A stretch of DNA of 64,000 nucleotides, from positions 9,794 to 73,793 of the forward strand of contig CANPZG010000002.1 in NCBI GenBank assembly GCA_947588765.1, written 5' to 3'. The first letter of the stretch is position 1; the number at the start of each line of letters is the position of its first letter. This document shows positions 1-26,895 of this stretch, one piece after another. The DNA comes from an uncultured Bacilli bacterium (GTDB taxonomy: Bacteria; Bacillota_I; Bacilli_A; RF39; UBA660). The notes beneath the pieces are model-generated. The model searched no databases. It saw only the letters and a list, made by a program, of their open reading frames with translations, and was not told the origin of the DNA. Both the position numbers and the translations under genes were made by a program.

Positions 1-1725
1 ATCTTAATAAATGCTAGTGCCAATAATTTTGCTAAGGGTAGTGAAGACTTAAATGGTACAATAAAAGCAACAGCTAATTTAATAGCAAATAATAATACAA
101 ATACAACAGATAAATATTATTATAATGTATATCTAGATGTAATAGAAAATGAATTAGAATATTCCTCATTTACAGACCCAGATAATTTACAAAACAATTT
201 AGTATTTACAAATGAATATGATAAAACCTTAGGAAATAATAGAGATTATAATGGTCTAACAAAAGGGTATGACCCAATACCAGAATTATATTTAACCATA
301 ACAGGACCTAATGATTATGAATATAATATTAGTTTTCCAAAAGCAACATTAAAAGATGATGATGATGATAGTTATGATATAACAGAATTAAGAGAAGGAA
401 TATATCCATTGGTATTAAATAGAGCAATTCAAGTAGAAGCAACAGATAAAGGTACAAAGAAAGAAGATTGGCAAGTAAAAGTGACATTAAAGAATTTAGA
501 TAGTAATCAACAATTAAATACAGGAAAGACATTTAATGCGAAAGTAATAATCCAAGCAGAAAAAATACCAATGAATTTAATGGATGTATGCAAAGCAGGA
601 GATAACTTAGCAGAATGTATCAAAGAATTACATGATAAATCAACATATGGAGCAAGTAATTTAATCTATCATGATGGGGTTGCAGATTATGAAGGAATGC
701 CTAATGTAGAATTAGAAGCAGGAGATAAATCATATAGATATACAGGGTCATATGAAAAAGTAAATAATTATGTATGTTTTGGAGAAAAATGTTCACCAAC
801 ACCAGATGAAGACGGATATGATAATTTATATCGAATAATAGGAACATTTCAAAATGAAGAAGGGGAATATGAAACAAAACTTATCAAAGCAGACTATGCC
901 AATAAAGAATTATTAGGTGCTGGATCACAAACTCCAGGTGATTTAACCCAAGTAAATTCAGAAACAAATGGATCTTATTCTGGTAGTATTTATCAAGCTA
1001 CGAATGCTTCCACAGAAGAAAAAGATGAATATACCCATAGATATAAAGGTTTATTAGAACATGTAGATAGGTATAGATGGCAAAAAAACGAAACAAACGA
1101 TACGTTAGGAAATTGGCCAACATCACTATTAAACAAAATTCATTTAAATAATATTTATTATAATAAAATAGATCCAATATACCAAAGTCTAATAATAAAT
1201 CATGATTGGGTATTGACAAGTGATAAGACAGGATGGGGAGATATAGCATCAGGTGCAAATGCAAAAAAAACATACAGTAATGAACTAGGTGAAAATTCAA
1301 CAAATCAAGAAATAGTTCCCGAAAATATCGGATTAATGTATGTAAGTGATTACTTATATGGAGCAGCATCAAAGAATTGGAGTAAAAAAGCTTTTTTTGG
1401 TGGACATTGGCATTATGATACAAACACAGGCAAATCAGACAAATATGGTAATCCAGTATTAAGTTTTGATGAAGATGAAATATATAGTGATTATAGATCA
1501 ACCACAGATAGTAATTGGATATATATAGGATTATGGGAATGGTTTATGACTCAATGGAAAAATATAAAAAATAATACTTTCTTTATGTATATTGGTGGAC
1601 ATGTTGGTATTGGACAAGTCGGCTCAACCTCAAATGCAGTCCGTCCTACTTTCTATGTAACTAATGAAGCTAAATTTAAAAGTGGAACTGGTACAGCCAG
1701 TGATCCATATATTATTTCACAATAA
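1..1725 (+). CDS. Large secreted/surface protein, 5'-truncated by window edge; paralog of 26896..28821
   Basis: Frame 1 is open from nt 1 (ILINASANNFAKGSEDLNGT...) and aligns with the 26884..28821 product. It shares long near-identical stretches (KVTLKNLDSNQQLNTGKTFNAKVIIQAEKIPMNLMDVC) and the C-terminal VRPTFY...SGTGTxxDPY motif. Confidence 0.8.
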   Translation: MLINASANNFAKGSEDLNGTIKATANLIANNNTNTTDKYYYNVYLDVIENELEYSSFTDPDNLQNNLVFTNEYDKTLGNNRDYNGLTKGYDPIPELYLTITGPNDYEYNISFPKATLKDDDDDSYDITELREGIYPLVLNRAIQVEATDKGTKKEDWQVKVTLKNLDSNQQLNTGKTFNAKVIIQAEKIPMNLMDVCKAGDNLAECIKELHDKSTYGASNLIYHDGVADYEGMPNVELEAGDKSYRYTGSYEKVNNYVCFGEKCSPTPDEDGYDNLYRIIGTFQNEEGEYETKLIKADYANKELLGAGSQTPGDLTQVNSETNGSYSGSIYQATNASTEEKDEYTHRYKGLLEHVDRYRWQKNETNDTLGNWPTSLLNKIHLNNIYYNKIDPIYQSLIINHDWVLTSDKTGWGDIASGANAKKTYSNELGENSTNQEIVPENIGLMYVSDYLYGAASKNWSKKAFFGGHWHYDTNTGKSDKYGNPVLSFDEDEIYSDYRSTTDSNWIYIGLWEWFMTQWKNIKNNTFFMYIGGHVGIGQVGSTSNAVRPTFYVTNEAKFKSGTGTASDPYIISQ

Positions 1726-1744: not shown

Positions 1745-3220
1745 CTCTGGACAGTTTTGAATAAAGCCAGGTGGAAACGGCAATTGCAGCGATAAAAGTA
1801 CGTCCAATTATTAAGAAAAATGATAGCTAAAAATTAAAAAAATGATAAAGAAATGAAAATAAGAGAAAAAGTAGGCAAAAATTCTCATGCGAAAAAAATT
1901 GTCTACTTTTTTAAATTGAATTTTAGATTAAATCATATGTCATATAACTTAAAAGTAAAAGGTAAGCGGATATAATGAAAAGAATTAAAAGCAATATTGA
2001 ATAAAGTTAAACCAGTATTAAATAAAGACATAACTCTTTTTTTAATGCGTTTATCATTAATAATATAAACTTTATGAGTAGTAATATTAACATTGTGATA
2101 GCATTTAGAGTTTTTAGAAAAATCAGTACCCAGAATAGTTAAATAAACAATACAAGTACAAAGAATAGAATACATGTTAGTGAAAGAATGAATAGACATA
2201 TTAGAAATTTTATTAAGATTAAAACCATTAGATTTTTGGTTTTTAAAAACACATTCAATAGAACCAAAACGATAAGAATAATTTAAAACAGCATGATCTA
2301 AATCATTATTTGAAGCAATAATCCAAGGAGTGGAAGTATTTAAAGAATTAGAATAGATGATATTAGATTTAAATCTATTGTCAGTAATAAGGACATCTTT
2401 ATGAACAACAGCATGATATTTCTGATGTTTAAGTTTTTTAGCAAGGAACTTTTTATTATCTTTAAAAACATGAATATTACCTTTTAATCTAACACAATAG
2501 GTATGACCTAAAGAATCAATATGATCTAAAATTAAAGTAGAAGAAAACCAACGATCAGCTAAAAAGATAAGCTCAAAGCCTTTACCATTAAATAAATTAT
2601 GAACAGCATTGATACCATTAATAATGGTATCAATTTTAAAAGCATCAGAATTATTACTACCTTTAAAACAATCAAAATAGATAGGAATACCTTGAGTACC
2701 AATACGCATGGAAAACATAAAAACAGTATAATTATCATGAGAAAACATATGATCAAAAGTAATATGAACTTTATTATTAGAATGTTTAGATTTGTAATTA
2801 TGAATAATAGAAGAAATTAAACTACTGAAGAAAACTTTACCCTGAAACAAATTATTATTCCAAAATCTATTAATGCGTTTAACAACAGAATCAAATTGAG
2901 CCCAGATTAATTCATCTTTTAAAGATTTAGCAATATCAGAAGAAGCACAAGATTCAGAATTAATCATACCAAACATTAAAGAAGGAATAAAATTAAGTTG
3001 AGTTTTTCTAAGATAAGGAATATTAAGGGAAAGAAAATTAGAAAAACCACTTGTAATATCAGACTGGATATTATATAATTTATTCATTAAACAACCTCAC
3101 TTTTTATTTTTTTTGATAATATAATAATAACAAAAAAAGGTTGTTTAATCAAATTAGAGAAAGAAATAGATATAGCTAGTATGTTATATCTATTTTAAAT
3201 TTTACAAAAAACTGTCCGTA
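1745..3220 (-). mobile_element. IS4-superfamily-like insertion sequence (about 1.48 kb)
   Basis: Imperfect terminal inverted repeats CTCTGGACAGTTTT (1745-1758) and AAAACTGTCCGTAG (3207-3220; 12/14 as reverse complement) bracket one DDE transposase ORF. No clear target-site duplication; boundaries are approximate. Confidence 0.65.
1933..3087 (-). CDS. DDE transposase (IS4/IS701-like)
   Basis: 384 aa. Contains LIFLADRWF and a C-terminal YSYRFGSIECVFKNQK block resembling the IS4 Y-x2-R-x3-E-x6-K signature. Lies between the inverted repeats. Confidence 0.75.
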   Translation of the reverse strand: MNKLYNIQSDITSGFSNFLSLNIPYLRKTQLNFIPSLMFGMINSESCASSDIAKSLKDELIWAQFDSVVKRINRFWNNNLFQGKVFFSSLISSIIHNYKSKHSNNKVHITFDHMFSHDNYTVFMFSMRIGTQGIPIYFDCFKGSNNSDAFKIDTIINGINAVHNLFNGKGFELIFLADRWFSSTLILDHIDSLGHTYCVRLKGNIHVFKDNKKFLAKKLKHQKYHAVVHKDVLITDNRFKSNIIYSNSLNTSTPWIIASNNDLDHAVLNYSYRFGSIECVFKNQKSNGFNLNKISNMSIHSFTNMYSILCTCIVYLTILGTDFSKNSKCYHNVNITTHKVYIINDKRIKKRVMSLFNTGLTLFNIAFNSFHYIRLPFTFKLYDI

Positions 3221-3971: not shown

Positions 3972-5860
3972 GTGTGCCGTGCATGGCATATATCTAGTTG
4001 GTGAAAGACCAATACACGCATAGGTATCGATGAAGTGTTAGGGAAGCACAAAGCATTAACAGTGATGTTAGGGCTAAAGGAAGTGTGGAACAAAATCGAG
4101 GGCTAACGAACAGAAACTTACTATAAGGCTATATAAACGGATAAGGTTGCTTAACAAACTAAAGTCCAAAAGATACTCGTAACTTTATATAGTAAAGTAA
4201 GTAGCTAATCGAGGAAAGATATATGTCTTACCGCGGGAGGTCTCATAGACATGAAAGTCAGGGAAACGACGAGGAGTACAAGGACAAGTAATGGTCGAAA
4301 AAGGTTTACTATGAGAAGTCAGCCGAGGTCGTAGTACTAGTTAGTTAGGAAGGACTGAATAATTTGTAGTTTTTACTACTGAAATTGGAATAGGTTAAAG
4401 TCAGAATAAATAAAAGGAAGAGTACCAAGCGTAACTTGGGAACGTGCCTCAAAAGATGATTAACCTATGAGCGAAATTAGAAAGGTGGAAACAGATATGG
4501 AACTTTTAGAGAAAGTACTTTCCAAAGACAATCTAAACAATGCCTATAAGCAAGTTTACAAAAACAAAGGAGCAAGTGGCGTCGACGGAGTAACAGTAGA
4601 CGAATTATTTTCTTATATCAAAGAACATAAGGAAGAGATACTTTATCAAATAAGAAATAGAAAATATAAACCACAACCAGTAAGAAGAGTATATATTCCA
4701 AAAGAAAACGGGAAACTTAGGAAACTAGGAATACCAAATGTCATAGATAGGGTATTACAACAAGCAATAGTACAAGTCTTAACCCCAATATATGAAGAAC
4801 AATTTTCTAATAATTCATATGGATTTAGAATAGGAAGAAGTTGTGAACAAGCAGTTATAAGAGCCCTTGAACTATTTAATGATGGATATGATTGGGTAGT
4901 AGATATAGACTTACAATCATTCTTTGATGAAGTAAACCAAGATAAACTAATAGGTATTATAAGAAGAACCATAAAAGATGGAAACCTAGTATCTCTAATA
5001 AGAAAGTTCTTACAAAGTGGAGTAATGGAAAAAGGAGTAATACAAGAAACAAATAAAGGGACACCCCAAGGAGGAAACCTAAGTCCATTACTATCAAACA
5101 TAATGTTAAATGAACTAGATAAAGAATTAGAAGCAAGAGGATTAAACTTTGTAAGATATGCAGATGATTGTCTAATAATGGTAAGAAGTGAAAAAGCAGC
5201 AAATAGAGTAATGGGAAGTATAACAACATTTATAACTAAGAAATTAGGACTAAAAGTAAATGTAGAAAAGAGTAAAGTAGCAAGACCTAATCAAATTAAA
5301 TACTTAGGTTTTGGATTTTACAAGAAAATTAATCAAAGTAAATGGAGACCAAAGCCACATATTAAATCAATGGAAAAATTTAAAACTAAAATACATGATA
5401 TACTTATAAGAAGTAGAAATGTAAAACTAGATACAAGATTAATTAAATTGAAACAAATAATATATGGATGGGTCAACTATTTTAAAATTGCAGACATGAA
5501 AGTATTTCTTAAGGAAATAGATAAATGGATAAGACGAAAACTTAGAGTTATCATATGGAAACAATGGAAAAAGGTAAGGAAAAGATATACTTGCCTCAGA
5601 AAACTCGGCATAGGTCATATAGATGCATATATAACAGCGAATGCTAGAAGAGGATATTATCATGTAGCTCATACCAGAGTGCTAGAAACTGCAATCTCAA
5701 AAGAAAGATTAAATAAAAGAGGTCTAGTAAATTCACTAGACCATTACCTAAAAGTTCATGTTATTACAAATTAAACCGCCGTATACCGAACGGTATGTAC
5801 GGTGGTGTGAGAGGGTATCATATCAATAAGTCAAATTATTGAAAATTTACTCTACTCGAT
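3972..5860 (+). mobile_element. Group II intron, class C (IIC)-like, with intron-encoded RT/maturase
   Basis: 5' GTGTG at 3972. A GC-richer structured region runs 3972-4460. Domain V hairpin at 5775-5806 has a CGC triad. Putative domain VI has a bulged A at about 5854. The 3' boundary is approximate (+/-10 nt). Confidence 0.8.
4467..5774 (+). CDS. Group II intron reverse transcriptase/maturase (no endonuclease domain)
   Basis: 435 aa. RT blocks include GVDG, PKxNGKLRxLGIP, TPQGGxLSPLLSN and YADD, followed by the maturase X domain (YGWVNYF). No HNH/En domain follows. Confidence 0.95.
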   Translation: MSEIRKVETDMELLEKVLSKDNLNNAYKQVYKNKGASGVDGVTVDELFSYIKEHKEEILYQIRNRKYKPQPVRRVYIPKENGKLRKLGIPNVIDRVLQQAIVQVLTPIYEEQFSNNSYGFRIGRSCEQAVIRALELFNDGYDWVVDIDLQSFFDEVNQDKLIGIIRRTIKDGNLVSLIRKFLQSGVMEKGVIQETNKGTPQGGNLSPLLSNIMLNELDKELEARGLNFVRYADDCLIMVRSEKAANRVMGSITTFITKKLGLKVNVEKSKVARPNQIKYLGFGFYKKINQSKWRPKPHIKSMEKFKTKIHDILIRSRNVKLDTRLIKLKQIIYGWVNYFKIADMKVFLKEIDKWIRRKLRVIIWKQWKKVRKRYTCLRKLGIGHIDAYITANARRGYYHVAHTRVLETAISKERLNKRGLVNSLDHYLKVHVITN

Positions 5861-6951: not shown

Positions 6952-7137
6952 ATGACTAAAGTTGTTGTCCAAGGTGGCGATCTTGATGCGGCTATGCGTA
7001 AATTCAAGACTAAATTTGCAAGAAGTGGAGTCCCTTCTGAAGTAAAGAAAAGAAAAAATTATTTAAAACCAAGTATTAAGAGAAGAAACAAAAAAGAAGA
7101 AGGAATCAAAAATTCTCGTAAACATAATCGTGATTAG
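6952..7137 (+). CDS. rpsU: 30S ribosomal protein S21
   Basis: MTKVVVQGGDLDAAMRKFKTKFARSGV...KRRNKKEE is typical of S21. GGAGGG RBS lies before the ATG at 6952; the ORF-track start at 6892 is an upstream extension. Confidence 0.9.
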   Translation: MTKVVVQGGDLDAAMRKFKTKFARSGVPSEVKKRKNYLKPSIKRRNKKEEGIKNSRKHNRD

Positions 7138-7160
7138 AACTAGCAATAGTTCTTTTTTTA
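7136..7160 (+). terminator. rpsU terminator
   Basis: AGAACTA / TAGTTCT stem followed by TTTTTT. Confidence 0.7.
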
Positions 7161-7238
7161 TGCTTTTTATTAATTTATAAATTGCATTATTATTAAGAGT
7201 TTGATATAATTTATTATGATAGGTTGGGTGGATAGTAA

Positions 7239-8312
7239 GTGAGTAGCAATGTTATTACAAAATATAAGCAAAATAAACAAAAAGTTATCTTGGCTTATGC
7301 GAAAATATTAGAGACATTAATTACTTTAGAGGATAATACTTTATGGCAAAAATCCAAAGACTTTAATGAAATAGGTGAAGGAGTAGTTAATAATTTTGTC
7401 GAAAAATATTATTTTGATAATAATATTAATCGTAATAATCCGATTGAATACTTAAATGATAATATTAATGCGGTTTTGATATCAATTATGGATTATTATA
7501 AAGAAAAGAATAAACCAAATATAGTTAAAGAAAAGAAAAATGAAACATTCTTAATATCAGTTATTGTATGTACGGCAAGTTTTATTGATATCGCATCAAA
7601 TGTAGTTGATGGTAACTATATTGAGATGAAAAGTAATTTAAAGAAATTATTGAAACACTTAAGTAAAACGGAATTATTAAAAGTTTATTACAATAATAAG
7701 ATAATCTTAAATAAGTTATTTGCAGAAGTTAAGAAAAACATTAATAATGACAAAAAGTTCTTTAGTTATTTTAAAAATCCTAATTGGCATAATGAATATC
7801 AATTAGTAAGTAAGAATCCAGAATATTACCGAGTTAGATTTATTTATAAAGTTGAAGGCTTAGAAAATTACGAAAGAAAATTAGTTCAAAAATATCAAAA
7901 GAAATATCTAAAAGACTTTTTGAAAGTATGTTATGAGTTATTAGTCGTCTTATTAATGAAAGAATACATTATGAATAAAAAAGTTAATACTTATTTGATA
8001 CCCGTTATCGATGAAGTTAAAAATGATTTAAGTATTTTGGATATTCCATTAATAAGGGATAACATTAGATTATTTGTTCCAATCGAAAAATACGAAGAAT
8101 ACGAAAAAGAAGAACGATTTAAAGTTACTTACTTCTATCATGGCAAAGATATAAAAGTCTTTGATAATAAAAAGGATATTGAAGTCGTAGTTGATAAAGA
8201 GTTTATGACAAATAATAGTGCTAATTTAACAAATATAAAATTAATTGCTGAAGATTTAGGTAAAAATATGAAAGAAGAAGAAATATGCGTAATTAAGGAG
8301 AAAGTTTTATGA
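7239..8312 (+). CDS. Hypothetical protein, first gene of the four-gene McrB-like operon
   Basis: 357 aa, GTG start. Its stop overlaps the next start (ATGA at 8309-8312). No motif recognised. Confidence 0.6.
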   Translation: MSSNVITKYKQNKQKVILAYAKILETLITLEDNTLWQKSKDFNEIGEGVVNNFVEKYYFDNNINRNNPIEYLNDNINAVLISIMDYYKEKNKPNIVKEKKNETFLISVIVCTASFIDIASNVVDGNYIEMKSNLKKLLKHLSKTELLKVYYNNKIILNKLFAEVKKNINNDKKFFSYFKNPNWHNEYQLVSKNPEYYRVRFIYKVEGLENYERKLVQKYQKKYLKDFLKVCYELLVVLLMKEYIMNKKVNTYLIPVIDEVKNDLSILDIPLIRDNIRLFVPIEKYEEYEKEERFKVTYFYHGKDIKVFDNKKDIEVVVDKEFMTNNSANLTNIKLIAEDLGKNMKEEEICVIKEKVL

Positions 8313-9814
8313 ATATTTATGGTGAGTTTTTTACAAGTTTTATGGCGCCATTTTTTGATGGTTTAGTTCATATCTTTAAGTCTTTTTTTGAAGGCTTATA
8401 TCAAATGTTTAATGTATTAACATATATTGATGTAGTTACTAAGTATAAAGATAATTTAACCGGAGTAGGATTAGTTATCTTAATATTTTCAATTATTTTT
8501 CTATTAGCAATGTTTGCTTTCATTATCTTTTGTATTGTTCGCATCATTAGAACATATTTAAGATACAGAAGAAATGTAAGAAAAGAAGATATGTTAATTG
8601 AAGAAATTGAAAATTTAAATAATGATATTCTTAAATTAAGAAAACAAAATTCTAAATTTAGTGAATTAACAAACGATGAAGGTGAAATCGAATATGATGA
8701 AAATGGTAAGCCAGTTAATTCCCTAAAAGAAGGTGAAAGTAGATTCTTTAAATTAACTAGTGTGGATGAAAAATATAAAGATTATAAACCTGTTCCTATT
8801 GAAAATAAATTTACTTTAGCGGAATTTTGTGAATTATTCCGTAATTATTCGGCAAGTAAATTAAAATTATATTATGATCTTGATTTAATTAGATTATTTG
8901 TGGCTGCCTTAGCATCAAATAAATTAATTATTCTTGAAGGTATATCTGGTACTGGTAAAACTTCTTTAGCTTATGCTTTTGGTTCTTTAATTGACAATGA
9001 AACGACTGTGGCTTCTGTTCAACCTTCATGGCGTGACTCTACTGAAATCTTTGGTTATTTCAATGAATTTACCAAAAGATTTAATGAAACGGAAATCTTA
9101 GCTAAAATGTATGAAGCTCAATATACAGATGAAATATATATTACTTTATTAGATGAAATGAATATTTCCCGGGTTGAATATTATTTCGCGGAAATGTTAT
9201 CTGTTCTAGAACTACCAAATAAAAAAGATTGGATCGTAGAACTAGTACCTAATGTTTGGGAACATGACCCAATTAAATTAGATGAAGGTAAATTAAAAGT
9301 ACCAGAAAATATGTGGTATATTGGTACTATTAATAATGATGACTCAACATTTATGATTACCGATAAAGTTTATGATAGAGCAATGCCTATTGCTATTGAT
9401 ACTAAAGCTGAAGCTTTTGATGCTCCAGAAGTTGAACCATTTAAAGTAAGTTATAAATATTTAGATAATTTATTTGCTAAAGCTAGTAAAGAACATGCTG
9501 TAAGTGATGAAACATTAGCTAAAATTAATGAAATGGATCATTATGTTATTGAACATTTCCGTTTGGCATTTGGTAACCGAATTGTTAAACAATTAAAAGA
9601 ATTCGTTCCAGCTTTTGTTGCTTGTGGTGGTGAAGAAATTGTAGCAATCGATTACTTAATCGCTCATAAAATTTTAAGAAAATTTGAACAATTGAATTTA
9701 GCGTATATCAAAGATGAAATAGATGGATTTATTGCTTACTTAGAAAAATTATTTGGCGAAGGTAAAATGCCAGAATGTAAAGCTTATTTATTAAGATTAA
9801 AGAAAACAATCTAA
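8309..9814 (+). CDS. Membrane-anchored McrB-like AAA+ (AAA_5-type) NTPase
   Basis: N-terminal hydrophobic segment GVGLVILIFSIIFLLAMFAFIIFCIV. Walker A is GISGTGKTS. LLDEMNISRVEYYFAEMLSVLE and YIGTINNDDST mirror McrB DEINRANxSKxFGELxxLIE and IIGTMNTADRS. Confidence 0.7.
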   Translation: MNIYGEFFTSFMAPFFDGLVHIFKSFFEGLYQMFNVLTYIDVVTKYKDNLTGVGLVILIFSIIFLLAMFAFIIFCIVRIIRTYLRYRRNVRKEDMLIEEIENLNNDILKLRKQNSKFSELTNDEGEIEYDENGKPVNSLKEGESRFFKLTSVDEKYKDYKPVPIENKFTLAEFCELFRNYSASKLKLYYDLDLIRLFVAALASNKLIILEGISGTGKTSLAYAFGSLIDNETTVASVQPSWRDSTEIFGYFNEFTKRFNETEILAKMYEAQYTDEIYITLLDEMNISRVEYYFAEMLSVLELPNKKDWIVELVPNVWEHDPIKLDEGKLKVPENMWYIGTINNDDSTFMITDKVYDRAMPIAIDTKAEAFDAPEVEPFKVSYKYLDNLFAKASKEHAVSDETLAKINEMDHYVIEHFRLAFGNRIVKQLKEFVPAFVACGGEEIVAIDYLIAHKILRKFEQLNLAYIKDEIDGFIAYLEKLFGEGKMPECKAYLLRLKKTI

Positions 9815-9824
9815 GGAGTAGCTT

Positions 9825-10922
9825 ATGAAAATTGATGAATTTGTAAAAAACATTGAAGAAGAAAAACTACAAGATTTTCTTGATAGTACAAGTTCCCAAA
9901 TAAAAGCTACAACGAAAGTCCATAAAGTTATAACGGATACTTCTTGGATTGAAATGATTGAAAAGTCAATTCCTTATTTGGATAATATTATTCGTAATCC
10001 GCGAAAATTTATCGCCCAAGAAGAAGATATATTACCGATTGAAAAAACAAAATTTGTTACGGAAGAAAGTATTAAGCATTTAGCGCAAAATACAGGATTA
10101 ATTCAAGATGTTGATGAAGATGGTATGGTAATTCCTTTGAAATTACTAAATGTCTATCGGGAAGAAACTGTGGATTTATATGAAAATCGTTTCATCAAAT
10201 CTCTAGTAGATAATTTATATACTTTTGTTTCTGACAAGTTAAAAGGTAAAGTAGAAAAATCTAGTGTTAATACGACAAGTAATGTAACTTATGATGGTAC
10301 GTGTAAAGCTCAAAATAATACCGTTAAAGTAAGTTTAAAATTAGAAAGCGCTAGTAAAGATGAAATTGAAGAAGCTAATGAAAAAGAACAACATTTAGAA
10401 GAAAGAATCGAGCATATTAAAGATGTTATCGCAGCATTTCGAAGTAGTAAATTTATAAAGAATTTACAAGGATGTCAACCAGTACGGAGTCCTATTCGGA
10501 AAACTAATGTAATTTTGAAAGAACAAAACTTTGTCAAGGCTGTAGAATTATGGGAATATTTAGAAAGTAATGCTATAAAGCCAATGAGTGAAGTTACAAA
10601 TGAAGAATATGATTGCAGCGAAGATGTCAAAAAGACATATGATTTTACATTTTTTCTACAAAAAGAAGCATTAAAATTGCATAAAGATTCAAAATATGAT
10701 AAAGTAAAGATGGTAAAGAATATGGATTTAAATATTCTTTTAACCAATCTTATTAATGATAATGCCATGGAAGAACGGGAAGCCAATGCTTTAGTTCGTA
10801 AAAAAATAAGAAGTATTTATGCTGCTAAAAGAAAAGAAGAAATGGCAATTAATAAGTTATTTAGTGATTTTGTTAAAGATTTTGAAGGAAAGAAAAATAA
10901 AGCTATAGAAATATTAAAGTGA
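9825..10922 (+). CDS. DUF2357/McrC-N-terminal-like protein without recognisable nuclease domain
   Basis: 365 aa. Has the LYENRFIK motif and a later ELWEYL segment like the McrC/DUF2357 region. The C-terminus is short and coiled-coil-like, with no PD-(D/E)xK motif seen by eye. Confidence 0.45.
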   Translation: MKIDEFVKNIEEEKLQDFLDSTSSQIKATTKVHKVITDTSWIEMIEKSIPYLDNIIRNPRKFIAQEEDILPIEKTKFVTEESIKHLAQNTGLIQDVDEDGMVIPLKLLNVYREETVDLYENRFIKSLVDNLYTFVSDKLKGKVEKSSVNTTSNVTYDGTCKAQNNTVKVSLKLESASKDEIEEANEKEQHLEERIEHIKDVIAAFRSSKFIKNLQGCQPVRSPIRKTNVILKEQNFVKAVELWEYLESNAIKPMSEVTNEEYDCSEDVKKTYDFTFFLQKEALKLHKDSKYDKVKMVKNMDLNILLTNLINDNAMEEREANALVRKKIRSIYAAKRKEEMAINKLFSDFVKDFEGKKNKAIEILK

Positions 10923-10928
10923 GGGTAG

Positions 10929-12599
10929 ATGGCTATGGAAAAAGGAAAAAAAGAAAATAAAAGGGCCAAAATATTAGATAATCAAGATGTTCTAAATCTA
11001 AAAGAGTTTATGCTTTTACCTACGAGAGAACAAACTAATAAGATTAATGAGATATTAGCAAAATTATATGAAGATACTTTAAGTATAAGTCCTAAATATG
11101 TGGAAAAGGTTTTAAACTTATGTTATGAAGTTAAAGACAAAGATATATATTTACCTTATAACTTAAAAGTAAGTAAAGAAGGTAGTAAAGTAACTTTTGC
11201 TTTTGTAGAAAAAAGATATGGCTGGTTATTTTTACTATTTATCTTAGCCTTCTTATTTGCTGGTATCGCAGCAACTTATGTTGGGGTTCAATATATGAAT
11301 TCGATGAAGTTAAATATTGATATCAATGGTGATGGTATTGCCGATTTAAACATTGATATGCAAGGAAATGGTTATTGTGATATTAACTGTGATACGGATA
11401 ACGATGGTAAACCTGATGAAAATGTTGACTATCAAGGTAATCGAAATTCTTTATTTAATTCCGTAGATCCAACTGGTAAAGTTAATAATCCTGTAAATCA
11501 AGATTTAAATGATGATGGCAAATGTGATCTAAACTGTGATACAGATAATGATGGTTGGCCAGATATCAATTTAGATTTAGATGGTGATGGAAAAGCTGAT
11601 TTAAATGTTGATCGTAATAGTGATGGTATTCCTGATATAAATATTGATAACAATGGTGATGGTAAACCTGATATTAATGTTGATGTCAATGGTGATAGAA
11701 TTTGTGATTACAATTGTATTACAACGGATACAGATAATAAAAGAGAATTAAATGTTGATATTGATGGTAATGGTGCTTGTGATATCAACTGTGATACTAA
11801 TGATGATGGTATTCCAGATAAAAACTTAGATTATGCTGGTAATAAAGAATCAACATTTAATGCCGAAGATGAAAATGGTAATATTACTAATCGGACTAAT
11901 CAAGATCGCAATAATGATGGCAGATGTGATTTAAACTGTGATATTGATAAAGATGGTTGGCCTGATACTAATTTAGATATCAATGGTGATGGAAATCCAG
12001 ATTTAAATCTTGATACCAATAATGATGATTATCCAGACTTAAATATTGATACTGATGGTGATAAAGCTTGTGATTTAAACTGTGATGATGATGGTGATAA
12101 AGTATGTGATAGAGCATGTACAGATATAGTTGTTGAAGGTCACGGTAATGGTGTTATCGTTCAAGATGGTAATGGTGACACGGGAGTTGGAACTCCATCA
12201 ATAATTGTTAAATTTGAATCTAAAAATGAAGTTATAACTGATAATTTATATCCAGATGATCAAGGAAAAGAATATAATACTAAAGTTCCAGATTTAAGAT
12301 TCTCTATTGAAAATCCTAATGATATTCCAATACATTATAGTATGGAATGGATAATTGCAGAAAATACATTCACAACTGATAACTTATGGTATAAAGTTAC
12401 ATCTGATAATGAAGGTTATAATCAAGATTGGATAGCTACTCCAAAAGAAGATGCTTTAATCAATAATGAAATAATTATTCCACCTCATACAATTCAAAAT
12501 TATCAAATATCTTTAACATTACATGGTACTGGTGAAAACCAAAATGAAGACCAAGGTAAGAATTTTGAGGGAAAGGTTAGAATCGATATTATTAGATAA
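10929..12599 (+). CDS. Single-pass membrane protein with thrombospondin-type-3-like DxDxDG/Cys Ca-binding repeats and a C-terminal beta-sandwich-like domain
   Basis: TM helix GWLFLLFILAFLFAGIAATYVGV (aa about 98-120). Aa 129-398 are repeated D-x-N/D-x-D-G and C-D-x-N-C-D units. The start may instead be the second ATG at 10935. Confidence 0.7.
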   Translation: MAMEKGKKENKRAKILDNQDVLNLKEFMLLPTREQTNKINEILAKLYEDTLSISPKYVEKVLNLCYEVKDKDIYLPYNLKVSKEGSKVTFAFVEKRYGWLFLLFILAFLFAGIAATYVGVQYMNSMKLNIDINGDGIADLNIDMQGNGYCDINCDTDNDGKPDENVDYQGNRNSLFNSVDPTGKVNNPVNQDLNDDGKCDLNCDTDNDGWPDINLDLDGDGKADLNVDRNSDGIPDINIDNNGDGKPDINVDVNGDRICDYNCITTDTDNKRELNVDIDGNGACDINCDTNDDGIPDKNLDYAGNKESTFNAEDENGNITNRTNQDRNNDGRCDLNCDIDKDGWPDTNLDINGDGNPDLNLDTNNDDYPDLNIDTDGDKACDLNCDDDGDKVCDRACTDIVVEGHGNGVIVQDGNGDTGVGTPSIIVKFESKNEVITDNLYPDDQGKEYNTKVPDLRFSIENPNDIPIHYSMEWIIAENTFTTDNLWYKVTSDNEGYNQDWIATPKEDALINNEIIIPPHTIQNYQISLTLHGTGENQNEDQGKNFEGKVRIDIIR

Positions 12600-12605
12600 A
12601 AATTA

Positions 12606-12636
12606 AGCCTTGCAATTTGCAAGACTTTTTCTTTTG
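12606..12636. terminator. Terminator-like hairpin between convergent genes
   Basis: CTTGC (12609-12613) / GCAAG (12619-12623) stem followed by TTTTTCTTTT. Confidence 0.45.
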
Positions 12637-12639
12637 TAA

Positions 12640-13416
12640 TTATTTTTTAATCAATTTTAATAAAGTATTTGGAACTTCACATTCATAAGCATTATTTAGT
12701 ATTTGTTCTTTGGTTAATTCATTATTTTTACATAATGTTAAGAATCTTTTGTTGTTTCTATAATTATGGAAAAGTAAATATATAGGAGCAACATATTTCC
12801 TAAATTCGGGATTATGAATATCTTTTAAAATAGTAATTAATCTTGGATAATCAATAAATTCTCCTAAAGTAATAATTTGATTTTCTTCTTTAGTATACTC
12901 ATCATAATTAATACCATATTTCATCTTTTCCGCAATTTTAATATTTTCATCATTATAGCTAAATTCTTTATCAGTATTAAAATAAAAATAAATAATACTT
13001 TCTAATTCAACTTGCTTTATAGTCGTAGGAATATTGTTTAAACAATTAATTAATTCCATTAATCTATTTAATTTATTGATACTAGGATTTAAAACTAATT
13101 TATTTAAAATACCTAATAATCTTATTTTATATGGTTCTTTTATATTTAATATCATTTCTAATACTAAATTATAAGTATCATCTAAAGAATTAGATTTGAT
13201 TAGATTGCGAATAGTAAAAACATAGTAATTTAATTGATTATTAATTAATTTTCTTAAATTTTTATGCATTATTCTATCTTCGGGATTAGTAATATGAAAA
13301 TTACCATAATAAGTTAAGGTAGCATTACCAAATATAACTTTATTATTAGTAAAATCAATAGTTTGATCACGACAACCATCTATTACTTCTTTTAATATTT
13401 TACCACTTACATACAT
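12640..13416 (-). CDS. Hypothetical protein, paralog of 13788..14627
   Basis: Start moved to the ATG at 13416 (AAGGAG RBS 9-10 nt upstream). Shares ITLGEFIxxPRLxT...NP...APIYLL and the N-terminal block with the neighbouring gene. Confidence 0.6.
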   Translation of the reverse strand: MYVSGKILKEVIDGCRDQTIDFTNNKVIFGNATLTYYGNFHITNPEDRIMHKNLRKLINNQLNYYVFTIRNLIKSNSLDDTYNLVLEMILNIKEPYKIRLLGILNKLVLNPSINKLNRLMELINCLNNIPTTIKQVELESIIYFYFNTDKEFSYNDENIKIAEKMKYGINYDEYTKEENQIITLGEFIDYPRLITILKDIHNPEFRKYVAPIYLLFHNYRNNKRFLTLCKNNELTKEQILNNAYECEVPNTLLKLIKK

Positions 13417-13527
13417 AATAAACATCTCCTTAAGCAAAAAGTATTTTACTACATTTTTATGAAGAAAACAATATAAATATCTATACGCAATAGGACAAGT
13501 TAGCATATCCTATAGTAGGTGATATGA

Positions 13528-13791
13528 ATGAATATTAATATAACTGTTATTATTGCTTTAGTTGCTTATATCTTTGGAGCTATTACCAAAGTATTTATAA
13601 CTAAAATACCTAATAAATTTATTCCGTTACAAAATACGATTATTGGTATTATTAGTGCCATAATATGTTGGATAATAAAGTTAGAACCAAATTTTATTAC
13701 CGCTTTAATTGCTTGTATGATGGCAACAATGAGTGCTGGAGGAATAGCTGATTTAACAAAAATAACCAAGTCCGAAGAGGACGTTGGTTAA
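13528..13791 (+). CDS. Small membrane protein, phage holin-like (Listeria A118 / Phage_holin_1-like)
   Basis: 87 aa with 2-3 TM segments. KIPNKFIPLQNTIIGIISAI...MSAGGIADLTKITK with a charged tail resembles A118-type holins (recollection, not searched). Confidence 0.5.
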   Translation: MNINITVIIALVAYIFGAITKVFITKIPNKFIPLQNTIIGIISAIICWIIKLEPNFITALIACMMATMSAGGIADLTKITKSEEDVG

Positions 13792-14627
13792 TGTAAATTT
13801 TTTATATTAAGAGCAAGATGTAGTTCTTTGCTTTTAGCAGTTATTGCCTCTAAATCATCAGAAGTTAAATTTTCTTTTTGACAAGAACTTAAAAAGTTAG
13901 CTGCTTGATTAGGGTCTTTAATTAAAAAATAAATTGGGGCAATAATATTAGTTAAAGGATTATGACTTTTTAAATCAGTAGCAACAGTTTTTAATCTTTG
14001 AGGAGCTATGAATTCTCCAAGTAAAATAATATCTTTAATATCATTAAATGCTTCATCATTTTCATCAATTAAAAAAGCTTTTTTCTTTTCATCTCGTAAA
14101 TTAATACTAGGGTATTCATTAAATTCATAATTTTTTAAAAATAAGTCCATAATTAAGGTAATTTCAATTTGATTTAAATCGTTATTATTAATAAAACATT
14201 TAAGTAATTTAGCATATTGATCTAAAATATCTTTGATGTCTAATTTTAAAGTAATAGAATTATTAATAATATTATAAAATTGTTCGATTAAAATAAAAGT
14301 AAATTTACGATTAGTATTAAGAATTATTTTAATCATTTTGAGAACTATATCAGTTATATAAAAATCTTTATGATTAACATTAATGGTTTTGTCGGCATAA
14401 TTTTGTTTTATCTTTTGGTCTATTAAATGAGCATAATTTAAAATTTGTTTTTCTTCTCTTAAAGATAAAATTTCTAATTGACTTTTATTATCTAAAACTA
14501 AAGCTCCATCGTAAAATAATTGACCTTTAGGGAAAGTTACGCTTTCATCATCAAAATTTGTTATGCGATCGCGATAGAAATTAATCGCTTTATTTTTTAA
14601 TGAGCCACTTAAATATAATTCTTTCAT
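13788..14627 (-). CDS. Hypothetical protein, paralog of 12640..13416
   Basis: 279 aa. Shares the motif ILLGEFIAPQRLKT...NP...APIYFL. Its 3' end overlaps the holin-like gene by 4 nt (convergent). Confidence 0.6.
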   Translation of the reverse strand: MKELYLSGSLKNKAINFYRDRITNFDDESVTFPKGQLFYDGALVLDNKSQLEILSLREEKQILNYAHLIDQKIKQNYADKTINVNHKDFYITDIVLKMIKIILNTNRKFTFILIEQFYNIINNSITLKLDIKDILDQYAKLLKCFINNNDLNQIEITLIMDLFLKNYEFNEYPSINLRDEKKKAFLIDENDEAFNDIKDIILLGEFIAPQRLKTVATDLKSHNPLTNIIAPIYFLIKDPNQAANFLSSCQKENLTSDDLEAITAKSKELHLALNIKNLH

Positions 14628-14677: not shown

Positions 14678-16582
14678 TTAATTTAACATTAAAGCGACAG
14701 TACTTCCTTCTTTAACATAAGTATTAGCATCAGGACTTTGATATATTACTTTATCGCCCGAACCACTGTATTCTACTTTAAAACCTTTTAATGTTTTCTT
14801 AGCTTCATCGATTGATGTATTTACAACATCTGGTAATAATACATATTTAGTATCAAGCCAAGTGTATTCTCTTGGCATAACATCTTTAGATGGAGCGATA
14901 TCAAAAATATTAATAGCACTGGTTAGAATGTTTTTGGCTATGGGTGCTGAAACCGTTCCTCCATATTGGACGACATTTTTAGCGTTTTGAATGGCCACAT
15001 AAACTACTATTTGAGGATTATCCGCAGGCATAAAACCAATGAAAGATAAAATATATTTGCTGGTAGAGTAAACGCCATTTTCAACAGTTTGAGCGGTACC
15101 AGTTTTGCCACCAATGCGATAATTTTCAATATATGCATTTTTCCCTGTTCCATTAGCAACAACACTCTCTAAAGCAAAACGTACGAGCTTAGAGGTATCT
15201 TCACTAATAACTTGTTTAACTTCTTCTTTATCTATTTGTTTAATAACACTATTAGTTTCACTTTCTAAAAATGCTTTAACCATATGAGGAACATATAAAT
15301 GCCCACCATTAATCGCAGCACTTACAGCTCTAATTTGTTGAATCGGAGTAACACTTATTCCTTGACCAAAGGCTGTGGTAGCAGTTTCAACTGGCCCCAT
15401 ACTTTCCGTTTTAAATAAAATACCGGTAGCCTCGCCATTTAAATCAATTCCCGTTTTTTTACCAAAACCAAATTCATGAATATATTTCATTAGGGTTTCA
15501 GTGCCTAATTTCATGCCAATCGAAACAAAACCGGTGTTACAACTATTTTCCACAACATTAAGATATGTTTGGGTGCCATGGCCGCCATGTTTCCAACAGT
15601 GTAGGGTAGCATCATCAACTTTAATAGCCCCTGTATCGGTGAAAGTATCTTCAAATAAATTAATGGCTTTTTCCTCTAAAGCACTAGTGAGTGATATAAT
15701 TTTGAAAGTACTTCCGGGTTCGAAAGTCATCCAGATAGGTAAGTTTCTATTGATAACGTCCGTATTAGCACTTTTATAATCATTGGAGTTAAAAGTAGGG
15801 CGACTACCCATGGCTAAAACTTCACCAGTGTTTGGATCCATCGCAATAGCAATAGCGCCATCGGCATTATATTTACTCATCGCTTTATCTAATTCATTTT
15901 CAATTGCTTGTTGTAATTCTAAATCAATGGATAATTGTAATGTTATGCCACTAGTAGGAGCTTCGTATATTTCGGATAAAGCTAAGCGGTGACCTTTACC
16001 GTCAGAAAAATACTTGATACTACCATTTTCTCCAGTTAGATATTTATCGTAATAAAGTTCTAGACCCGATAAACCTTGATTATCTATTCCTACATAACCT
16101 AAAACATGGCTAAGTAAATTATCATAAGGATAATATCTTTTTGATTCTTTAACTAAATAAACACCATCATAATTTAAGTTATTTATTTTTTCAGCAGTTT
16201 CATAATCTAATTGTCTTCCTTCGGGATGAACTCTTTCAATTGATGTTTTTTTCGTAATATGTTTATAAATATCTTCATAATCACAATTTAAGATATTAGC
16301 TAAATCACTAGCCACGCGTTTACTATTCACGATTTGGCTTGGGATAACCACTAAAGAAGTGGTCGTAATATTTGTTGCTAAAACTCGACCTTTACGGTCA
16401 ACTATTTTACCCCTATCAGCACTAATGGGAAGTTCCCGGCTCCATAGGGACTCGGCTAGAGTAGATAACTTTTTATATTGAAAAACTTGAATATAAAAAA
16501 CTCTACCAATAGTAATAATTAAACAAATAATAATAACTAAAAAGACATATCTAATTCTTATATGAATATCATTATAAAACAT
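14678..16582 (-). CDS. Class B penicillin-binding protein (PBP2B/SpoVD/FtsI-type) with C-terminal PASTA domain
   Basis: N-terminal TM anchor. Active-site motifs STFK, SCN and KTGT. PASTA-like C-terminus (LPDVVNTSIDEAKKTLKGFKVEYSGSG...). Confidence 0.9.
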   Translation of the reverse strand: MFYNDIHIRIRYVFLVIIICLIITIGRVFYIQVFQYKKLSTLAESLWSRELPISADRGKIVDRKGRVLATNITTTSLVVIPSQIVNSKRVASDLANILNCDYEDIYKHITKKTSIERVHPEGRQLDYETAEKINNLNYDGVYLVKESKRYYPYDNLLSHVLGYVGIDNQGLSGLELYYDKYLTGENGSIKYFSDGKGHRLALSEIYEAPTSGITLQLSIDLELQQAIENELDKAMSKYNADGAIAIAMDPNTGEVLAMGSRPTFNSNDYKSANTDVINRNLPIWMTFEPGSTFKIISLTSALEEKAINLFEDTFTDTGAIKVDDATLHCWKHGGHGTQTYLNVVENSCNTGFVSIGMKLGTETLMKYIHEFGFGKKTGIDLNGEATGILFKTESMGPVETATTAFGQGISVTPIQQIRAVSAAINGGHLYVPHMVKAFLESETNSVIKQIDKEEVKQVISEDTSKLVRFALESVVANGTGKNAYIENYRIGGKTGTAQTVENGVYSTSKYILSFIGFMPADNPQIVVYVAIQNAKNVVQYGGTVSAPIAKNILTSAINIFDIAPSKDVMPREYTWLDTKYVLLPDVVNTSIDEAKKTLKGFKVEYSGSGDKVIYQSPDANTYVKEGSTVALMLN

Positions 16583-16704
16583 ATTATCCCTCTTTTAACT
16601 ATATTAACTTTTAGCTTTTAAATGTCTATTTTTTGTCAAATATTTTATATTTACAAATAATTAAGAAGAAAATATAGTATAATTAATAAAGAAAGAGGTG
16701 CAGT

Positions 16705-17697
16705 ATGTTAATATTGGCTAAAGCAGCTATGGCTCTCATGTTAGGTTTTATTTTATCTATTGCCACAGCTTTAATAGTTATTCCTTTATTTCGTAAACTT
16801 GGTTTAGGCCAAAGTGTAAGTAAATTAATATCCAAAAGACATTTAAAAAAGGAAGGTACGCCAACAATGGGAGGAGTAATATTTATTATTCCGGTGATTC
16901 TTTCTTTAATATTTCTTTATTTTAATAAAAGTATTAATATAAGCTATAATTTAATTATTGTTATATTTGTATTTTGTGCTTATGCCTTTTTAGGATTTAT
17001 TGATGATTATTTAAAAGTAAAGTTAAAAAATAATGATGGATTATCCTTAATAACTAAATTTTTATTACAAATGGTTATTGCTTTAATCTTCTTCTATTTA
17101 TTTATGAAGGGTGGAGGAGATTCAACTTTAAGAATATCTTTCTTACATTTAAGAATTCCATTAGGTTGGACCTTTGGTTTATTTATTTTATTCTTACTTG
17201 TTGGTACCACTAATGCGGTTAATATATCTGATGGATTAGATGGACTAGCAGCCGGATTAAGTGCTATTGCTTTCTTTGCCTACGGTATTATCTCGTGGAA
17301 TACTGGTTGGTTAGAAGGCTATCAAGAAATTGCTATTTTCTGTTTTATACTAATTGGTGCTTTAATTGGTTTTCTGGTCTTCAATTCCCATCCGGCGAAA
17401 ATATTCATGGGTGATTTAGGATCTTTATCTTTAGGTGGAGCTTTAGCCACAATTGCCATTATTACTCGCCATGAATTTTCTCTAGTTATTATTGGAGGCG
17501 TATTCGTTTTAGAAACGTTAAGTAGTTTAATCCAAATAATAGCTATTCGCTATTTCAATAAAAAAGTATTCTTAAAGGCCCCTTTACATCATCATTTTGA
17601 AGAGTTAGGTTGGGCCGAACAAGATATTATAAAATTATTTTGGGTTGTAGGATTTATTCTTGCAATGGCCGCAATTACCTATGGAGTATGGTTATAA
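16705..17697 (+). CDS. mraY: Phospho-N-acetylmuramoyl-pentapeptide transferase
   Basis: Polytopic protein with GTPTMGG, NAVNISDGLDGLA and GDLGSLSLGG motifs. Confidence 0.95.
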   Translation: MLILAKAAMALMLGFILSIATALIVIPLFRKLGLGQSVSKLISKRHLKKEGTPTMGGVIFIIPVILSLIFLYFNKSINISYNLIIVIFVFCAYAFLGFIDDYLKVKLKNNDGLSLITKFLLQMVIALIFFYLFMKGGGDSTLRISFLHLRIPLGWTFGLFILFLLVGTTNAVNISDGLDGLAAGLSAIAFFAYGIISWNTGWLEGYQEIAIFCFILIGALIGFLVFNSHPAKIFMGDLGSLSLGGALATIAIITRHEFSLVIIGGVFVLETLSSLIQIIAIRYFNKKVFLKAPLHHHFEELGWAEQDIIKLFWVVGFILAMAAITYGVWL

Positions 17698-17708
17698 CAC
17701 CATACTTT

Positions 17709-18596
17709 TTAAATAATTTTAAATATATATTTTAATAAATTATCTTTAATAATCTTATCTTCTAATTTATTAATTGAAAATGTTTTACTACCAGCATAAT
17801 TAAGAGATGCTCCACAATGATAAATCTCTTTTTGATCTAATATAATGTATCGATCATGAAAATCATTATTATAAACTATATTTAGATTATTGTATTGTTT
17901 TTGATATTTATTTATATCTATTTCTTTTAATAAACAATTATTTTTACAGATTATAGTTACATTAACTTTTAAATTTCTTATCATATCTAAAACACTTTTA
18001 TCGGCATAGTTATCAATAATAATTATGTTATTATCTGCTTCTTTTAAAATATCAACTATTTTTGAATAAGCATCATAAATTTGCCCATTAAAATAAATTT
18101 CATTATCTTTTTTCTTTTCTTCGAATTTATTAAAGGATTCTTGTAATAATTTAATATCTTCATCATGTTTTATCACTAAATTATTAATATATTTTTGTTG
18201 AATCAATTCATTAGAAATATATTTTCGCATCAAAACAAAGGCACGCATAATGCTAATGCTTACTTTTGCGGCAACCGAAGTTCTTAAAATACTTGCAAGC
18301 ATAGCAACTCCTTGTTCTGTGAAGACATATGGATTTTTTCGAACTCCTCCATATTCTTTTAAACTTGAAGTCCCACTTTGGGACTTCAAGTTTAAAAATT
18401 CTTCATTAGTTAATTGAAAATAAAAATCATTAGGAAATCTATCAATATTCCTTTTTACCGACTGATTAATTGTTTTCGTACCATTTACACATTTATAAAG
18501 TTTTGCTAAATCAGAGTCTAACATTACTTGTTTTCCTCTTACTTCATAAATTATGTTTTCAATTATTCTTTCATCTAATACTTTAATATTATTCAT
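17709..18596 (-). CDS. ORF6N (KilA-N-related) DNA-binding domain protein
   Basis: N-terminal IYEVRGKQVMLDSDLAKLYKCVNGTKTINQSVKRNIDRFPNDFYFQLT is a typical ORF6N domain. The C-terminus has FHDRYIILDQKEIYHCGASLNYAGSKTF. Confidence 0.75.
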   Translation of the reverse strand: MNNIKVLDERIIENIIYEVRGKQVMLDSDLAKLYKCVNGTKTINQSVKRNIDRFPNDFYFQLTNEEFLNLKSQSGTSSLKEYGGVRKNPYVFTEQGVAMLASILRTSVAAKVSISIMRAFVLMRKYISNELIQQKYINNLVIKHDEDIKLLQESFNKFEEKKKDNEIYFNGQIYDAYSKIVDILKEADNNIIIIDNYADKSVLDMIRNLKVNVTIICKNNCLLKEIDINKYQKQYNNLNIVYNNDFHDRYIILDQKEIYHCGASLNYAGSKTFSINKLEDKIIKDNLLKYIFKII

Positions 18597-26870: not shown

Positions 26871-26895
26871 GGGCTAAAAAGAGGTGTTTGATAAA

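Follow-up and report, generated by a model that had tools for sequence, protein, structure and literature searches.

McrBC is the textbook example of a restriction enzyme driven by GTP. Here we describe a four-gene operon from an uncultured Bacilli bacterium, in which a McrB-family GTPase is anchored in the membrane and is followed by a McrC-like partner devoid of nuclease. The operon was found on contig CANPZG010000002.1 (assembly GCA_947588765.1), in a stretch of 64,000 nucleotides that is called the window throughout the text and to which all positions refer. The G+C content of the window is about 27%, and its nearest relatives are metagenome-assembled genomes of uncultured gut "Bacilli" and "Tenericutes".

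Organization of the four-gene unit

An earlier note, made from the nucleotide sequence, had proposed that four genes of the same strand form one unit at 7239-12599. All four open reading frames (ORFs) are indeed found there on the forward strand. Their packing is also as proposed, with an ATGA overlap between genes 1 and 2 (8309-8312) and intervals of 10 and 6 nucleotides before genes 3 and 4, and a hairpin terminator is present on each side of the unit. Upstream, the end of rpsU is at 7137; next comes an AT-rich hairpin that carries a run of seven T residues. The promoter-like site 5' of gene 1 is a consensus match only; in this region, such sites are not more numerous than in shuffled sequence. 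The features of the unit are as follows.

7136-7158, forward strand: intrinsic terminator of rpsU, upstream edge of the unit; stem-loop GAACTA-GCAA-TAGTTC followed by seven T residues (-8.8 kcal/mol, z = -2.1)
7193-7220, forward strand: promoter-like site 5' of gene 1; TTAAGA, 16-nucleotide spacer, TATGAT (9 of 12 consensus matches)
7239-8312, forward strand: gene 1, soluble two-domain protein of 357 amino acids, GTG start
8309-9814, forward strand: gene 2, membrane-anchored McrB-family NxD GTPase of 501 amino acids
8447-8563, forward strand: transmembrane segment of gene 2, residues 47-85
8939-8965, forward strand: Walker A motif of gene 2, GISGTGKTS, residues 211-219
9332-9343, forward strand: NxD signature of gene 2, N342-N-D344-D345
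9825-10922, forward strand: gene 3, McrC N-terminal-domain protein without nuclease, 365 amino acids
10929-12599, forward strand: gene 4, predicted single-pass surface protein of 556 amino acids
11211-11297, forward strand: transmembrane segment/signal-anchor of gene 4, residues 95-123
11319-12128, forward strand: acidic repeats of gene 4, with 12 DxDxDG-type motifs and 7 CxxxC pairs
12168-12596, forward strand: putative camelysin/TasA-like C-terminal domain of gene 4, residues 414-556
12605-12627, scoring on both strands: bidirectional terminator-like hairpin, downstream edge of the unit (-9.4 kcal/mol, z = -2.3)

A membrane-anchored GTPase and its McrC-like partner

Gene 2 is a McrB-family NxD GTPase tethered to the membrane by its N-terminal transmembrane segment. 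The McrB-type AAA+ core is borne out by matches to NCBIfam McrB (E = 1.2e-7) and to the McrB structure 6hz4 of the PDB (3e-7, residues 194-383). In addition, a family profile made from 31 diverse homologs aligns with the whole length of the GTPase domain of Escherichia coli McrB (hhalign 96.9%, E = 1.5e-10, 259 columns). The three motifs quoted in the earlier note, GISGTGKTS, LLDEMNISRVEYYFAEMLSVLE and YIGTINNDDST, are all present. Across the 31 homologs, residues G211, G214, G216 and K217 of Walker A, D282 of Walker B and R357 are invariant, and E283 is found in at least 90% of the sequences. The NxD signature is invariant at N342 and D344, but the following D345 varies. Gene 2 is apparently catalytically competent.

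One or two N-terminal transmembrane helices had been expected in gene 2; Kyte-Doolittle windows (values above 1.6) give one strong segment, followed by a basic stretch and by a heptad-like charged helix at about residues 86-125. Residues 64-118 resemble FtsL-type families weakly, far below threshold (NCBIfam E = 0.013; Pfam FtsL E = 0.095). No DNA-binding specificity domain was found in Pfam searches, where residues 1-140 match membrane or FtsL-type families weakly only.

Gene 3 is the McrC-type partner of gene 2 and keeps the DUF2357 domain only. In McrC, this domain binds and activates McrB. The LYENRFIK and ELWEYL landmarks that had suggested a McrC/DUF2357-like protein are both in place, and Pfam DUF2357 (PF09823) is matched well above threshold (42.8 bits for a cut-off of 23.3, 4.7e-11), the match being limited to residues 20-150. 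A profile of the gene 3 family was also aligned with the single E. coli McrC sequence. This alignment, in which ENRFIKSL faces ANRIIKST, is not significant (hhalign E = 0.33), and the assignment of gene 3 thus rests on Pfam DUF2357.

The absence of a nuclease, also put forward in the earlier note, is confirmed. Beyond residue 150, neither Pfam nor the PDB gives any match, a PD-(D/E)xK nuclease included. The modelled structure contains a helix bundle, a long beta-hairpin (residues 147-180) and an all-helical, poorly conserved C-terminus with a long terminal helix (residues 317-364, with a pLDDT, the predicted score in the local distance difference test, of 81-90). Among the matches listed, 120 homologs of gene 3 are all 361-368 amino acids long and all carry a precomputed DUF2357 annotation; hence, none of them is long enough to contain a nuclease domain.

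A surface protein and a soluble partner

Gene 4 is predicted to be anchored in the membrane and exposed at the surface, with a camelysin/TasA-like domain at its C-terminus. As anticipated, Kyte-Doolittle analysis gives a single transmembrane segment, which is preceded by an N-terminal cytoplasmic region of about 95 residues and ends in a conserved AATY(A/V)G(V/L)(Q/R)Y motif. This motif looks like the ATYA(W/F)F of SipW-type signals encoded by neighbouring genes, with weak profile support (hhalign 32-42%). The predicted repeats were also recovered. They follow the pattern D-x-[DN]-x-[DN]-G-x-x-D, their number varies among homologs of 416-698 amino acids, and by their motifs they presumably bind calcium.

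The C-terminal domain of gene 4 aligns with small secreted proteins carrying AYF-type signals (hhalign 99.2%, E = 2.2e-19, 137 columns; blastp E = 1.7e-8). One of these small proteins, encoded at positions 8219-8803 of a related locus from a Hadza gut contig (L001), matches Pfam Peptidase_M73, the camelysin/TasA family, with 27.6 bits for a cut-off of 22.5, which gives gene 4 a strong, indirect tie to this family. No similarity was detected by hhalign between the C-terminal domain of gene 4 and the secreted-protein clusters c2-c5 of distant loci, so that its likeness to TasA is seen for the window-type subfamily only. Pfam searches with sub-domains (the N-terminal and the C-terminal part of gene 4, each half of gene 1, and the C-terminus of gene 3) matched nothing.

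Gene 1 is a conserved soluble partner. The earlier note had counted two membrane proteins beside the motor and its adaptor; this holds for gene 4, whereas gene 1 is a confidently folded soluble protein (AlphaFold2 model with a pLDDT of 90.9 and a predicted template-modelling score of 0.87). The model comprises a helical bundle (residues 1-176) and a beta/alpha domain (residues 183-350) that is weakly EAL-like. No sequence match to gene 1 was found in Pfam, NCBIfam, PADLOC or the PDB. The gene located directly 5' of gene 2 in distant loci is homologous to gene 1 (hhalign 98.9%, E = 2.8e-17).

Distribution and genomic context of the family

Close homologs of gene 2 are found by thousands in gut metagenomes, and 744 clusters at 50% identity match it with E <= 1e-30. 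Among species-representative genomes of Bacilli and Clostridia, at least 596 contain relatives. The neighbourhood survey was made on 81 loci, and the count of the gene 1 position on 77 of them. Genes 2 and 3 are always paired: gene 3 comes directly after gene 2 in all 80 genome loci but one, in which the contig ends. As to the co-occurrence of the four genes, raised as a question in the earlier note, a member of the gene 1 family is found at position -1 of gene 2 in 51/77 loci, and gene 4 occupies position +2 in the 15 loci nearest to the window.

The genomic link of the family with SipW-type secretion is strong. SipW-like peptidases of the S24/S26 families are encoded in 65 of the 81 loci, and in the main cluster of neighbouring secreted proteins, 53 of 72 members carry an A-x-(W/Y/F)-F (AWF/AYF) signal motif. 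Two layouts can be distinguished. In the first one, a short gene 3 (median 370 amino acids) comes after genes 1 and 2, usually with a SipW gene at +2. In the second one (27 loci), SipW is at -1, gene 3 is long (median 717 amino acids) and a bona fide EAL protein, identified by Pfam at 1.4e-46, is encoded in 12 cases. The window and its 14 nearest loci represent a derived subtype of the first layout, with no SipW in view. Gene 4 then holds the +2 slot, which in most of the other loci having a gene 1 homolog belongs to SipW. Six-frame ORFs of the whole 64-kb window, searched with a hidden Markov model (HMM) of SipW-like proteins, gave no match, nor did 14 of the 16 closest loci. Of the 17 loci that are closest to the window, 6 have additional camelysin-like genes nearby.

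Gene 1 homologs and true EAL genes exclude each other: the gene 1 family is present in 52 loci and true EAL genes in 14, with an overlap of 0. At the -1 position, 51 genes were assigned to the gene 1 family and 27 to SipW. Since this total exceeds the 77 loci, at least one gene matches both families; it may be a gene 1-SipW fusion, to judge from these matches. In three loci (L078, L082 and L084), the gene directly 5' of gene 2 encodes 682-726 amino acids and matches the SipW-like HMM.

The neighbourhood of rpsU and DUF1292, or that of a penicillin-binding protein (PBP), is kept in relatives whose identity is 76-80%. Where a PBP gene is adjacent, gene 2 is 80% and 77% identical while the PBP is 77% and 72% identical. 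Among 72,556 plasmids and 50,697 phages, none was found to carry a full-length homolog of gene 2. Five plasmid matches (H1-H5, from Pseudanabaena, Deinococcus, Rhodoferax, Polaromonas and Nostoc) cover the GTPase domain of gene 2 alone, at about 38-40% identity and with no membrane anchor; they probably represent further proteins of the NxD clade, for example from CoCoNuT-like systems. In genomes labelled Muribaculaceae, Bacteroidales or Bacteroidaceae (L016, L036, L040, L043, L062 and L072), this Bacillota-type locus is present at 51-61% identity. These cases are likely due to errors of binning or labelling in the source assemblies and not to horizontal transfer.

Camelysin (Peptidase_M73) matches were obtained in the Hadza gut locus mentioned above. 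There, directly 3' of the four-gene cassette, a second cassette (16335-18350) resembling a diversity-generating retroelement (DGR), with a bAvd accessory protein and a reverse transcriptase, is located amid camelysin/TasA-like genes. This arrangement suggests targeted diversification of camelysin/TasA-like surface proteins.

A probable SipW-less variant of the CoCoPALM branch

The earlier note found no named architecture matching the operon. This proved wrong: with an NxD GTPase bearing a transmembrane segment and a nuclease-less McrC, the operon fits the CoCoPALM branch as outlined by Bell et al. (2024, eLife, PMC11090510). Section 7 of that paper defines an NxD clade of McrB GTPases by the pattern N-x-D, usually followed by D or E. 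Within this clade, CoCoPALM GTPases are fused to an FtsB-like transmembrane segment and a coiled coil, and their McrC homologs have coiled coils and often no nuclease, with signal-peptidase or pilus genes nearby. CoCoPALM receives one paragraph there, and its analysis is deferred to later work (PMC11090510).

Compared with this outline, the operon shows several common features. The N342-x-D344 pattern of gene 2 followed by a non-invariant D345 is that described for the NxD clade; the GTPase is preceded by a transmembrane segment and by a charged heptad-like helix that may be a coiled coil; gene 3 consists of DUF2357 and helices, with no nuclease; and more distant gene 2-gene 3 pairs (47-55% identity) have SipW-like signal peptidases and secreted proteins around them. 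In contrast, the window operon has no signal-peptidase gene in its locus or anywhere in the 64 kb, its putative coiled coils are short, and gene 4, with its transmembrane segment, acidic repeats and putative camelysin-like domain, is found in the usual SipW slot. The operon is most likely a compact, SipW-less, four-gene variant of a named and unexplored branch. The available part of PMC11090510 mentions neither gene 1 nor EAL or TasA-like proteins, and the text files of its supplements list no CoCoPALM accessions. Relative to that part of the paper, the novelties are the conserved gene 1 family and its exclusion of EAL genes, the putative camelysin/TasA nature of the surface component, and the housekeeping-like conservation. 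Literature searches retrieved no later paper on CoCoPALM and none linking McrB with TasA or SipW.

Several better-known systems may be compared with the operon. As in E. coli McrBC, the core of gene 2 is an AAA+ GTPase in which Walker A, Walker B and Nx(x)D motifs are present, and gene 3 has the DUF2357 domain of the McrB-activating partner. Unlike in McrBC, a membrane anchor replaces the N-terminal DNA-binding domain of gene 2, gene 3 is devoid of the PD-(D/E)xK nuclease, and the invariant pattern of gene 2 is NxD and not NxxD. Like the operon, CoCoNuT systems are built on an NxD GTPase; they have coiled-coil fusions and have often lost the nuclease of McrC. However, CoCoNuT GTPases are not membrane-anchored, and CoCoNuTs without the McrC nuclease are described as always having HEPN or other nucleases nearby (PMC11090510), whereas none of the four operon proteins has a match to a nuclease family. 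The tapA-sipW-tasA and sipW-bsaA operons of Bacillus and Clostridium have in common with the CoCoPALM loci the SipW-type signals ending in A-x-(W/Y/F)-F and the camelysin-family domain; here, in contrast, the conserved core is made up of a McrB-like GTPase and a McrC-like partner. Fibres of TasA, camelysin and BsaA assemble by donor-strand exchange, with no dedicated nucleoside triphosphatase (NTPase) (PMC9674648, PMC11580942).

Among defence models, gene 2 matches the PADLOC candidate PDC-M26A (3e-40). The best stretch covers positions 314-438 of the 724 of the profile, that is, the GTPase core only. None of genes 1, 3 and 4, nor the partners encoded in two other loci (L037 and L041), has any PDC-M26 match. 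Since the GTPase core alone is in common, identity with PDC-M26, which no paper found in the literature mentions, was rejected.

Possible function and alternatives

EAL domains of the FimX type serve as receptors of cyclic di-GMP and control type IV pili. We favour, with moderate confidence, the view that the operon is a SipW-less CoCoPALM subtype whose motor pair acts on the assembly of TasA-like surface proteins or fibres rather than on DNA. Gene 2 would form a hexameric ring under the membrane, which gene 3 would plug and activate as McrC does with McrB. GTP hydrolysis would be spent on the cytoplasmic side of envelope assembly, not on DNA, in a process by which TasA-like surface proteins or fibres are exported, anchored or polymerised. 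The motor would most likely take hold of gene 4 by its cytoplasmic tail and signal-anchor. Gene 1 would probably be a regulatory input, possibly a degenerate EAL-fold receptor of cyclic di-GMP replacing the true EAL enzymes of the sister subtype. A wider proposal, in which genes 1-3 are the core of a hitherto unrecognised GTP-driven machine of Gram-positive gut bacteria, a McrBC-derived cytoplasmic ring motor for export, anchoring or polymerisation of TasA-like fibres, controlled by cyclic di-GMP via EAL enzymes or gene 1, is tentative and in our opinion rather doubtful. Such a machine would amount to a novel type of apparatus for assembling pili or fibres, derived by evolution from a restriction enzyme.

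Several points weigh against an envelope motor of the CoCoPALM type. The window and its 14 closest loci are devoid of the very signal peptidase by which CoCoPALM is defined. Fibres are linked to the family through guilt by association, because no experiment has been made on any CoCoPALM system. As Bacillus TasA and camelysin fibres need no NTPase (PMC9674648), the role of a motor is left unexplained. The likeness of gene 4 to TasA is indirect, Pfam searches with gene 4 itself and with its C-terminal domain giving no Peptidase_M73 match. Foldseek comparison of the gene 3 model with the PDB gave no significant match, McrC structures included; with an overall pLDDT of 69, this model is too uncertain for use either for or against. 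The EAL reading of gene 1 meets similar difficulties. The best PDB matches of its model in Foldseek are EAL domains, and those of its C-terminal domain are degenerate EAL receptors of the FimX type (4ag0_B, E = 0.02, probability 1.0), but these matches are weak (TM-score 0.29-0.39). Moreover, comparison with EAL sequence profiles gave hhalign values of 0.3-2.8%, no PDB sequence match was obtained and no EAL motifs are detectable. Thus, the EAL idea survives on structure and on the mutual exclusivity with true EAL genes, the sequence-profile tests having all failed.

The earlier note had hesitated between a membrane-acting defence module and a cell-envelope machine. The second is now the better supported, owing to the SipW-like peptidases and proteins with SipW-type signals around most loci, the putative camelysin/TasA-like end of gene 4, the kept chromosomal position, the PBP-level conservation and the lack of an effector domain. 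An anti-phage or abortive-infection module, with gene 4 as surface sensor or decoy and the GTPase transducing or executing the response, is unlikely in our view. McrBC ancestry speaks in its favour, as do the sister CoCoNuT systems, predicted to be defence systems (PMC11090510), and the proximity of the Hadza gut cassette to RloB/AAA_21 genes and to the DGR-like element. The PDC-M26A match points the same way but is confined to the shared GTPase core, and no partner protein matches any PADLOC model. Family searches with the four proteins revealed no nuclease, pore-former, protease or other effector domain. This, together with a position beside rpsU, DUF1292 or a PBP kept in related genomes and a conservation of gene 2 on a par with that of an essential PBP, counts against defence; so does the lack of full-length copies on plasmids and phages.

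The N-terminal part of gene 2 may also evoke a factor of cell division or cell-wall remodelling unrelated to fibres, the FtsB/FtsL-like transmembrane segment and coiled coil docking the GTPase to the divisome. Bell et al. call the N-terminal fusion of these GTPases FtsB-homologous (PMC11090510), and a class B PBP gene is located 2 kb downstream in the window, as it is in two related loci (L008 and L009). However, the weak FtsL matches of residues 64-118 are far below threshold, the PBP gene is on the opposite strand and is unlinked in most loci, and over the 81 loci it is signal peptidases and secreted proteins that recur consistently as neighbours, not genes of the divisome. We therefore give this explanation little credit. 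A return to ordinary McrBC-type restriction, in which gene 1 would be a split-off PD-(D/E)xK or ERCC4-like nuclease, is highly improbable. It could invoke a weak Pfam ERCC4 match in gene 1 (residues 189-239, E = 0.086), but the 13.2 bits obtained are well under the 24-bit threshold. The model contradicts a nuclease as well, its only nuclease match being Ecl18kI with a probability of 0.04, and the invariant residues of gene 1 form no D...(D/E)xK pattern on adjacent strands. In addition, gene 2 carries a membrane anchor where canonical McrB has its DNA-binding domain. A nuclease identity for gene 1 was accordingly rejected.

Other genes of the window

At 26884-28821 of the window, the forward strand encodes a secreted protein of 645 amino acids with the SipW-type signal GATYAFF (LVVGATYAFFKAQ). 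A 5'-truncated paralog is present at the window start (1-1725, forward strand), and a GLW(E/D)W C-terminal domain is common to both. These two proteins may be substrates or partners of the operon machinery. Between the truncated paralog and rpsU are a transposase-like ORF (1933-3087, reverse strand, 384 amino acids) and a group II intron reverse transcriptase (4467-5774, forward strand, 435 amino acids), which suggests that the insertion of mobile elements disrupted the paralog.

Just 3' of the operon, two paralogous genes of the reverse strand (12640-13506 and 13788-14627; 288 and 279 amino acids), without Pfam match, flank a membrane ORF of 87 amino acids. A relative of these paralogs was seen in one other locus only (L007).

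Significance for the family

In this family, the motor-activator pair of McrBC is found without DNA-binding domain and nuclease, tethered to the membrane, in at least about 600 gut Bacillota species and beside signal peptidases and TasA-like secreted proteins. The CoCoPALM family has been named and never analysed, and the subtype of the window is a minimal four-gene version convenient for experiments. If the motor does act on the assembly of surface fibres, a defence enzyme would have been repurposed as envelope machinery. An energy-dependent step would also be added to the biogenesis of TasA-type fibres, which is currently thought to need none.

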